Assembly (NCBI GenBank): GCA_002085205.1
Contig: NATF01000012.1
Span: forward strand, 1-32,737
Direction: 5' to 3'
Length of the DNA: 32,737 nt
From: Candidatus Cloacimonas sp. 4484_275
Lineage (GTDB): Bacteria; Cloacimonadota; Cloacimonadia; Cloacimonadales; TCS61
In this document: positions 13,874 to 14,807 of the stretch, piece after piece
How positions within the stretch are numbered: the stretch's first letter is position 1
Layout: each line of letters opens with the position of its first letter
Notes under the pieces: generated by a model
What the model saw: only the letters and a program-made list of their open reading frames with translations
What the model was told of the DNA's origin: nothing
The model's database searches: none
Position numbers and translations under genes: made by a program

Positions 13874-14125
13874 TTATGTCGAGAAGATAAGCAAAAGAGC
13901 AATAACCAATGAATAAATTCCTGTGGATTCGGATACTGCCTGACCTACAAGCATGGTTCTGGTTATTAAACTTGCGTTTTCCGGAGAACGAGCAATTCCC
14001 TCGCATGCTTTTCCGGCAACAAAACCTTCACCAACTCCGGGTCCCAATGCACCCATTCCCATACAAACTCCAGCTCCAAGCAGAGCTGCTGCTTTTGCAA
14101 TTCCGTGTGCAAGCGTTAATTCCAT
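13874..14125 (-). CDS. atpE: Fo ATP synthase subunit c, single hairpin with a two-carboxylate Na+-type ion site
   Basis: [92 protein letters not shown] lies 5 nt upstream of the ATG at 14125. [17 protein letters not shown] is near-identical to Ilyobacter tartaricus [17 protein letters not shown]. The ORF-track start at 14203 is upstream read-through. Confidence 0.9.
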
Positions 14126-14807
14126 TTTTTCCTCCAATTTTATTGTTTTTACATATTTTTTTGGGAAATTTACCGAGCATTTCGTTCGCCTTGCCGGCAA
14201 CATATCCTATTCCCGTTCCCGGACCGATGGTTCCTAATCCGATAACAAATCCTGCTCCGATAAAGGCGGTGGATTTCATAATTATTTTGGCAATCGAAAT
14301 ACCAACCGGTTGCGGCGGAATCGAATAAAGAAGCAAAAGCGAAACAACCAAAGCAAAGATTGCGGAAGTTTGCGAAAGCGCTTGCCCAACCAGCATATTG
14401 CCGATAATCGTGCTTGAATGTTTCGGCATCCTTCCGATTGATTTACAGGCTTGTCCACCCGAATAACCGGCGCCGATGGAAGGTCCCAAAGAACCTACTC
14501 CCATTGCAATTCCGGCAGCAAGCAAAGCGGCGGCTTTATACCAACCACCTTTTGGAACATCAAAACCACCGTAAATCAGCAGCATGGAAACAACAAGCGC
14601 AAAAATTCCCGCCGTTTGCGCCGCCGCTTGTCCGATTAACATGGTTCTGAAAATCTGTTCATTTGCTTTCGGTTGTCGCATAATGGCGGACGCACCTTCT
14701 CCGGCAATCATTCCGGAACCGATTCCGGTCGTTATCGCTCCGATTCCAACACTGATTCCCGCTCCCAAATAAGCGGCTATTCTAATATATTCAACAGAAA
14801 AACTCAT
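14028..14807 (-). CDS. Covalently fused multi-hairpin c-subunit paralog: two complete hairpins plus helix 1 of a third. The carboxylate is replaced by Gln, and the 3' end is aberrant.
   Basis: Hairpin 1 has ...[39 protein letters not shown]. Hairpin 2 has ...[39 protein letters not shown]. The third unit, [41 protein letters not shown], then runs out of frame through the atpE RBS and 5' end. Codons after ~14156 are probably not genuine. Confidence 0.7.

Follow-up and report, generated by a model that had tools for sequence, protein, structure and literature searches.

The 32,737-nucleotide (nt) stretch of DNA analyzed in this study (hereafter the window; positions 1 to 32,737 of contig NATF01000012.1, assembly GCA_002085205.1, Candidatus Cloacimonas sp. 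4484_275) carries an F-type ATP synthase operon with two successive c-like genes, one encoding several c hairpins fused in a single chain and the other an ordinary single hairpin. The locus raises the question of whether these two genes encode a hybrid rotor, that is, a mixed c-ring in which some of the hairpins have lost the ion-binding carboxylate. How many ion sites a c-ring carries determines the ion/ATP ratio, and with it whether an organism near the thermodynamic limit is able to make ATP from a small ion gradient or to build a steep gradient from ATP. To our knowledge, the only F-type design with a reduced number of sites that has been characterized is that of Acetobacterium woodii, with 10 sites on 11 hairpins. 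The best explanation of our data, to which we give a probability of roughly 0.7, is that the window contains the standard operon of the Cloacimonadota, the two c proteins of which form a heteromeric c-ring that uses Na+ and needs fewer ions per ATP, and that the truncation of the fused gene in the window is a lesion of the contig.

Subunits a, c, b, OSCP, alpha, gamma, beta, and epsilon were all matched by Pfam in the window, which identifies the enzyme as F-type. Within this one operon, a multi-hairpin c and a single-hairpin c stand together, and two of the fused hairpins have lost their carboxylate, as expected of a hybrid F/V rotor of the A. woodii type. An earlier note, made from the letters of this DNA alone, had proposed that this F-type operon encodes a candidate hybrid rotor, with a Gln-bearing fused multi-hairpin c next to a single c of the two-carboxylate Na+ type, and this proposal stood up to the present analysis.

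The fused open reading frame (ORF) matched ATP-synt_C in three stretches (Pfam, E = 3.7e-33), and its best PDB sequence match was the double-hairpin c1 subunit of A. woodii (4bem_J, E = 2.3e-27). HMMER alignment placed Gln64 of the fused protein opposite Glu62 of c1 and Gln146 opposite Gln162. MAFFT alignment of all hairpins with the c subunit of Ilyobacter tartaricus, the numbering of which is used here for site residues, gave Ser32/Gln65/Phe70 for hairpin 1 and Ala32/Gln65/Phe70 for hairpin 2. Both methods thus place Gln exactly at the carboxylate position of the two complete hairpins, and in neither the alignment to I. tartaricus c nor that to A. woodii c1 does it fall beside that position; the Ser or Ala in helix 1 and the replacement of Tyr by Phe, as read in the earlier note, were likewise upheld. 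Ser/Thr66 was retained in every hairpin, in the window clade as well as in the commonest signatures.

The covalent joining of the hairpins by real linkers was also confirmed, since both linkers were found (amino acids (aa) 76–93 and 157–176), and they are conserved. The AlphaFold model of the ortholog P0003 (predicted local distance difference test, pLDDT, 95.2) agreed with the expected topology, showing three helical hairpins with high confidence across the linkers. A structure search with this model returned no PDB chain spanning all three hairpins; the best match was again A. woodii c1 (4bem_J), which superposed over two hairpins with a root-mean-square deviation of 1.4 Å and a template-modeling score (TM) of 0.82 relative to the target. 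The sequence and structure searches therefore confirm A. woodii c1, named beforehand as the precedent, as the closest solved relative. As the three hairpins are only 37–42% identical to each other, the fusion must be old, which had been supposed earlier and is further supported by the conservation of the gene pair across the Cloacimonadota described below.

The single-hairpin c, the gene of which is preceded by a Shine-Dalgarno sequence in the window, matched ATP-synt_C (PF00137, E = 2.9e-17) and aligned from end to end with the c subunits of I. tartaricus (1yce, E = 5e-21) and Fusobacterium nucleatum (3zk1, E = 6.9e-21). Its site residues are Glu32 (in GPGVGEGF), Val63, Glu65, Ser66, Thr67, and Tyr70. 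The close likeness of its helix 2 to the Na+-binding helix of I. tartaricus, pointed out earlier, amounts to 16 of 17 residues, and the alignment bears out the Glu at the Gln32 position that is known from F. nucleatum. Judged by these residues, the single c is of the predicted two-carboxylate Na+ type represented by F. nucleatum. The subunit is about 95% conserved among the orthologs of close relatives, and the signature E32/V63/E65/S66/T67/Y70 was present in 72 of the 75 single c subunits of relatives among the species representatives.

The fused gene itself is not intact in the window, as had been suspected from its 3' end. Past aa 217 (GKFPKK), the ORF runs out of frame and reads through both the GGAGG motif and the start codon that belong to the single c gene. 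Compared with the related loci L001 and L004, about 94 nt are absent, which correspond exactly to helix 2 of hairpin 3, and the original stop codon is thrown out of frame; the window copy has neither a complete frame nor an even number of transmembrane helices. Orthologs with an intact 3' end were found by a homolog search of the fused protein, which returned 522 proteins; among the best 120, from which hairpins were counted, 109 had three hairpins (approximately 250 aa) and 11 had four (approximately 305–325 aa). More than 100 homologs are thus triple hairpins of 250 aa, nearly all from Cloacimonadota. In the closest intact relatives (81–83% identical), hairpin 3 keeps Glu65, Ser66, Thr67, and Tyr70 (AAVSESTAIYSLV; end ...RTMFLGAAVSESTAIYSLV...). 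The suggestion of the earlier note that no hairpin of this unit carries a carboxylate rests on a truncated gene and is therefore not supported, because the lost helix carries Glu in the closest relatives. Based on the sequences of these relatives, the intact protein of the window lineage is most likely Q-Q-E, with one site per three hairpins, the letters giving the residue at the carboxylate position of hairpins 1, 2, and 3.

The distribution of these patterns was examined by scanning genomes, one for each GTDB species. The scan gave 177 relatives, of which 80 loci were kept for counts; almost all belong to Cloacimonadota, together with two from Marinamargulisbacteria and one from a bin labeled Armatimonadota. 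The most frequent patterns were E-Q-E (33 loci) and Q-Q-E (29), followed by E-Q-Q and Q-Q-Q (four each), G-Q-E (three), G-Q-Q (two), and E-E-E (one, L081); in two further loci, E-Q- was followed by a hairpin 3 that was cut off. A complete operon of the Q-Q-E type is that of L047 (OY771587.1). The protein set of the homolog search gave the same picture. Hairpin 2 carried Gln in 109 of 109 three-hairpin proteins of that search, the sole contrary cases being L081 and two E-E-E rows of the protein pattern tally, which disagrees slightly with the per-hairpin tally. Hairpins 1 and 3, on the other hand, have kept or lost Glu differently by lineage.

Although the carboxylate-free condition was not supported for the window unit, it does exist outside the window. 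Triple hairpins of the Q-Q-Q or G-Q-Q pattern were found in complete Cloacimonadota chromosomes of approximately 1.5 Mb (L086, OY762943.1; L087, OY781061.1; L090, OZ223280.1), and for this reason we consider them real. The carboxylate-free proteins (P0030, P0032, P0017, P0071, and P0085) were always adjoined by a normal single c.

The pairing of the two subunits is similarly constant. In 74 of the 80 species-representative loci, a single c came immediately after the triple c. Of the remaining six, four run into the end of their contig, and a fifth lacks its 5' end but does have the single c. In the sixth, L060, a reverse-strand gene of 365 aa (3318–4415) breaks up the operon right after the triple c, and no single c is seen before the contig runs out. 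In every context examined, the a gene is followed by a multi-hairpin c, then by a single-hairpin c of 79–84 aa, and then by b, including that of a Q-Q-Q variant, the four-hairpin form of Coatesbacteria, and another four-hairpin form. The triple c and single c genes are separated by a median of 30 nt. A Shine-Dalgarno sequence of the form GGAGG precedes the single c in 74 of 74 cases; before the triple c, the motif is in most cases just GGAG. This difference in ribosome-binding-site strength weakly suggests that more single than triple units are made, which fits an excess of single hairpins in the ring.

Several findings in the literature bear on how such a rotor could work. The Na+ site lies between neighboring hairpins, with Glu32 or Gln32 and Glu65 contributed by one hairpin and Ser66 and the Val63 carbonyl by the next (PMC3692424). 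In the A. woodii ring, nine single hairpins are combined with a double hairpin that lacks one of its sites; this enzyme synthesizes ATP at low driving force (PMC9171764). Cloacimonadota possess a Na+-transporting methylmalonyl-CoA decarboxylase and Rnf (PMC13082233), and this Na+ physiology fits a Na+ rotor. By analogy with A. woodii c1 and c2/c3, the triple c and the single c may assemble into one heteromeric ring, probably of many single hairpins and few triple units. The single c would supply the complete Na+ sites of the mixed ring, and the triple c would fill three ring positions with one, two, or no sites, so that the Na+/ATP ratio would be lowered with the ring diameter kept. A carboxylate-free hairpin would pass the arginine of subunit a as a neutral Gln without carrying an ion. 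Since every hairpin has retained Ser/Thr66, a site whose Glu comes from a neighboring hairpin could stay complete. As simple site arithmetic on an assumed ring of 11 hairpins, the size of the solved Na+ rings, one Q-Q-E unit with eight singles would give 9 sites and 3.0 Na+/ATP, and two Q-Q-E units with five singles would give 7 sites and 2.3 Na+/ATP.

Several points weigh against the heteromeric Na+ ring. The co-assembly of the two subunits, their stoichiometry, and the ion specificity are all inferred from sequence and analogy. Most hairpin 3 sequences have Ile at the Gln32 position (window aa 199–205, GIGYVAG), despite the full E-S-T-Y motif in helix 2. Kaim et al. are said to have found in 1997 that the Q32I exchange in Propionigenium modestum abolished Na+ coupling and left H+ and Li+ coupling intact. 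Because Ile32 resembles this exchange, the Glu of hairpin 3 may not form a true Na+ site, and its sequence is compatible with a site that may bind H+ rather than Na+, or Na+ weakly. In a Bacillus PS3 c10 ring engineered as one continuous chain, a lone E56Q exchange abolished ATP synthesis (PMC8809890, citing Mitome 2004), so that the passage of two or three Gln hairpins in a row is not trivially expected to work. In addition, hairpin 3 could carry either Glu or Gln in the organism of the window, as some relatives of 73–76% identity are Q-Q-Q. Finally, the window copy is broken, and a real deletion in this organism is possible.

The last of these points leads to the strongest rival explanation, in which the lesions are real, the Fo part (atpZ, atpI, a, and the triple c) is decaying into pseudogenes, the F-type enzyme is non-functional, and a V/A-type ATPase is perhaps used instead. 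The a gene is split by the duplication listed in Table 1, the two 20-nt copies of which differ at one base, and no Pfam match was obtained for the fragments of atpI and atpZ. With the deletion in the triple c gene, four lesions thus cluster in the Fo genes; Cloacimonadota also express V-ATPase components (PMC13082233). An independent assembly of the same strain was looked for as a comparison, and none was found, the protein of the fused ORF (P0001) occurring on one contig with one member and the closest relatives being only about 70% identical at the DNA level. However, similar lesions affect unrelated housekeeping genes on the contig. In ruvB, approximately 40 residues are missing and the conserved C-terminal part continues in another frame. 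ParB and the M23 peptidase, which are two adjacent genes (approximately 280 and 215–230 aa) in relatives, form one ORF in the window in a stretch about 195 nt shorter than in L004, possibly as a genuine fusion or through another deletion. The F1 genes, b, delta, and the single c are, moreover, intact and highly conserved, the undamaged parts of the triple c are free of stops and frameshifts at 81–83% identity to the orthologs, and the one-base difference between the atpB copies suits a mis-joined overlap or an allele better than a fresh duplication. As housekeeping genes are hit as well and the remaining sequence is well conserved, we read the small lesions as faults of assembly or joining, and helix 2 of hairpin 3 was most likely lost through a fault of the contig or assembly and not in the organism itself. 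Decay of the Fo genes is therefore an improbable explanation, if one that deserves to be kept in mind. The protein P0040 (222 aa) was considered as a second natural five-helix truncation and rejected, as it results from a frameshift in a long-read contig, with helix 2 of hairpin 3 intact in another frame.

Less probable still is the formation of two homomeric rotors without mixing, namely a V-like ring of triple hairpins with a very low ion/ATP ratio acting as a pump and a ring of single hairpins acting as the synthase, used according to conditions. V-type and some A-type rings do consist solely of multi-hairpin subunits (PMC9171764, PMC2359735), and the two c genes have separate ribosome-binding sites of unequal strength. 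Nevertheless, the conserved Q-Q-Q and G-Q-Q forms could not build a working ring alone, which makes two homomeric rings unlikely; the close spacing of the two genes in one operon leaves little room for separate regulation; and the only characterized F-type case is a mixed ring (PMC9171764). Deletion-type lesions do occur on the contig, but the idea that the fused ORF is itself an artefact, joined from separate single-hairpin c genes by such deletions, is refuted by over 100 assemblies made independently of one another, some of them complete long-read chromosomes, in which intact triple hairpins are joined by the same linkers, by the recurrent gene pair, and by linkers that are conserved and confidently modeled, so that the fusion is genuine.

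The heteromeric Na+ ring is best compared with the hybrid c-ring of A. woodii (c1 with c2/c3; PDB 4BEM), in which a multi-hairpin c gene likewise stands right after a and is followed by a single Na+-type c, and in which the fused hairpin shows the same change of Glu to Gln at the carboxylate position. The same c1/c2 arrangement is known from Clostridium aceticum (PMC7911925), and these organisms and the Cloacimonadota alike are anaerobes with Rnf and Na+ bioenergetics (PMC7911925, PMC13082233). There are also clear differences. A. woodii c1 has two hairpins with one of the two sites lost, whereas the Cloacimonadota protein has three hairpins with two (Q-Q-E) or three (Q-Q-Q, G-Q-Q) lost; the lost site is in the last hairpin of c1 and always in the middle one in Cloacimonadota; and the single c has Gln32 in A. 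woodii and Glu32 in Cloacimonadota. In the hairpin identity matrix, the hairpins of A. woodii c1 were 70–72% identical to A. woodii c2 and 36–41% identical to the Cloacimonadota hairpins, while hairpin 3 of Cloacimonadota was closest to its own single-c partner (54%). Orthology of the triple c with c1 through a shared fusion event, which we had considered, is ruled out by this matrix, and because the c1 hairpins are closest to A. woodii c2, the two hybrid designs are convergent.

Among the homomeric single-hairpin rings, the c11 ring of F. nucleatum (PDB 3ZK1) shares the two-carboxylate Na+ site with the Cloacimonadota single c but, in contrast to Cloacimonadota, has no fused partner. The c11 ring of I. 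tartaricus and P. modestum (PDB 1YCE), also homomeric, shows 57% core identity overall with the single c, and differs from it in having Gln32 in place of Glu32. As far as is known, the multi-hairpin c/K subunits of archaea form homomeric rings, and that of Methanopyrus kandleri keeps all its sites. Apart from the cases above, the multi-hairpin c subunits reported belong to archaeal A-type enzymes and to V-type enzymes (PMC2359735; PMC9171764). In the archaeal A1AO c/K, the hairpin has been multiplied covalently to at least three units, as here (the triplication in Methanocaldococcus jannaschii and the 13 hairpins of M. kandleri; PMC2359735, PMC9171764); these are, however, A/V-type enzymes, whereas the Cloacimonadota gene lies in an F-type operon, has a single-hairpin partner, and has lost most or all of its sites. 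The V-type proteolipids (NtpK of Enterococcus hirae; eukaryotic c/c'/c'') have one site per multi-hairpin unit, which is also the case for Q-Q-E, and matched the P0003 model in Foldseek with a TM of about 0.8 relative to the target over two hairpins. The double-hairpin V-type c/NtpK, however, shares only 22–26% identity, has four to five helices, and belongs to a V-type enzyme.

No description of an F-type triple- or quadruple-hairpin c, or of Cloacimonadota c subunits, was found in the literature searched, outside of which lies a 2015 review on the distribution of hybrid rotors. As predicted from the genes, the Cloacimonadota system is an independent and more extreme hybrid rotor: the fused subunit has three or four hairpins and has lost two or three sites in a row, its partner is of the two-carboxylate type, and the design is conserved across a phylum. 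We regard it as an even bet that Cloacimonadota, and probably several other uncultivated lineages, run F-type Na+ rotor rings with blocks of two to three consecutive carboxylate-free hairpins, some of the triples being free of sites altogether. If this is true, the ion/ATP ratio would fall below that of any known F-type enzyme, and the Fo motor would be able to step across multi-hairpin gaps, unlike the PS3 ring in which one engineered site was knocked out. The E-E-E, E-Q-E, Q-Q-E, and Q-Q-Q patterns found in present-day species would then resemble consecutive steps in the loss of sites.

These results should be of real interest to specialists on ATP synthases. Cloacimonadota are syntrophic fermenters that are important in anaerobic digesters, and their variants, in which three fused hairpins carry one site, two sites, or none, provide a natural comparative series for how far site loss can go. 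The rotor may also serve as a test of how several neutral positions in a row are passed, and of whether the "gear change" of V-type enzymes has evolved repeatedly within F-type enzymes. In addition, estimates of ATP yield in metabolic models of Cloacimonadota would be affected.

Fused c subunits extend beyond the triple hairpins of Cloacimonadota. A profile-free search of 1.84 billion representative proteins for multi-hairpin relatives returned many more, ranging from approximately 160 to 1139 aa. Four-hairpin c subunits (L010 with P0077, L011 with P0062 from Coatesbacteria, P0046, and P0094) showed the patterns E-Q-E-E, E-G-Q-Q, E-E-Q-Q, and E-Q-Q-E; L010 and L011 are F-type operons with b and b', in which a single-hairpin c comes next. 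In Marinamargulisbacteria (L089 and L091), the pair of triple c and single c was found with the patterns E-Q-Q and E-Q-E at approximately 45% identity, which points to either an older origin or a transfer. The c-like proteins of 406–1139 aa (P0121, P0124, P0125, P0183, P0192, P0207, P0237, and P0259) have lengths that suggest about 5–14 hairpins; among those inspected, the five-hairpin proteins P0121 and P0125 keep one Glu each, and P0124 keeps all five.

The genomic contexts of relatives share the gene order of the window operon (Table 1), the standard F1Fo order in Cloacimonadota being atpZ, atpI, a, triple-hairpin c, single-hairpin c, b, delta, alpha, gamma, beta, and epsilon. The name atpZ is used here for the small upstream ORF of the Pfam ATPase_gene1 type.

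Table 1. Positions of the ATP synthase genes, the parts of the fused c-like ORF, and the damaged sites in the window.
Feature	Positions	Strand	Basis or remark
Epsilon	8598-8999	minus	Pfam; intact
Beta	8992-10392	minus	Pfam; intact
Gamma	10418-11272	minus	Pfam; intact
Alpha	11308-12807	minus	Pfam; intact
Delta/OSCP	12804-13352	minus	Pfam; intact
b	13349-13831	minus	Pfam; intact
Single-hairpin c gene, 83 aa	13874-14125	minus	Pfam PF00137; alignment to 1yce and 3zk1
Fused c-like ORF, 259 aa	14028-14807	minus	Three ATP-synt_C stretches (Pfam)
Out-of-frame read-through tail, aa 218-259, not real coding sequence	14028-14156	minus	Overlaps the ribosome-binding site and 5' part of single c
Deletion junction (CCCAAAAAAATATGTAAAAAC)	14145-14165	minus	DNA alignment with L001 and L004
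In-frame remnant of triple-hairpin c, aa 1-217	14157-14807	minus	81-83% identical to the 250-aa P0002 and P0003 over 100% of residues
Hairpin 3 helix 1, aa 172-213; Ile at the Gln32 position; partner helix 2 lost	14169-14294	minus	Alignment; AlphaFold model of P0003
Hairpin 2, aa 85-161	14325-14555	minus	Alignments
Hairpin 2 Gln146 at the carboxylate position	14370-14372	minus	ALSQTSA
Hairpin 1, aa 5-79	14571-14795	minus	Helix limits from AlphaFold model of ortholog P0003
Hairpin 1 Gln64 at the carboxylate position	14616-14618	minus	AAAQTAG; Ser at the Gln32 position, Phe at the Tyr70 position
atpB (Fo a subunit), split into two ORFs (15158-15739 and 14811-15179)	14811-15739	minus	Pfam ATP-synt_A profile divided between them
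atpB 20-nt tandem duplication (GGATTTATGGAGCCGACCCG / GGATTTATGGAGCCGACCAG)	15166-15205	minus	Tandem Repeats Finder (TRF), period 20; absent from L001 and L004
atpI and atpZ remnants	15743-16248	minus	Alignment with L001, L004, and L007
atpI 22-nt tandem duplication	15856-15901	minus	TRF, period 22
atpZ (ATPase_gene1-type ORF), shortened relative to three relatives	16057-16248	minus	Alignment with L001, L004, and L007
ParB (N-terminal and helix-turn-helix domains) and M23 peptidase as one 447-aa ORF	16596-17939	minus	Pfam; relatives
ruvB, internal deletion and frameshift near 20130-20230	19456-20169	plus	Frame translation

The a subunits of Cloacimonadota are long, with 296–337 aa in the a genes of L001–L009, compared with 223–227 aa in the four-hairpin lineages; the approximately 100 extra N-terminal residues fall beyond the Pfam ATP-synt_A match. 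Elsewhere in the window, a 27-nt tandem repeat of 2.1 copies with 96% match lies at 1904–1962 and could represent one more duplication like those in atpB and atpI.

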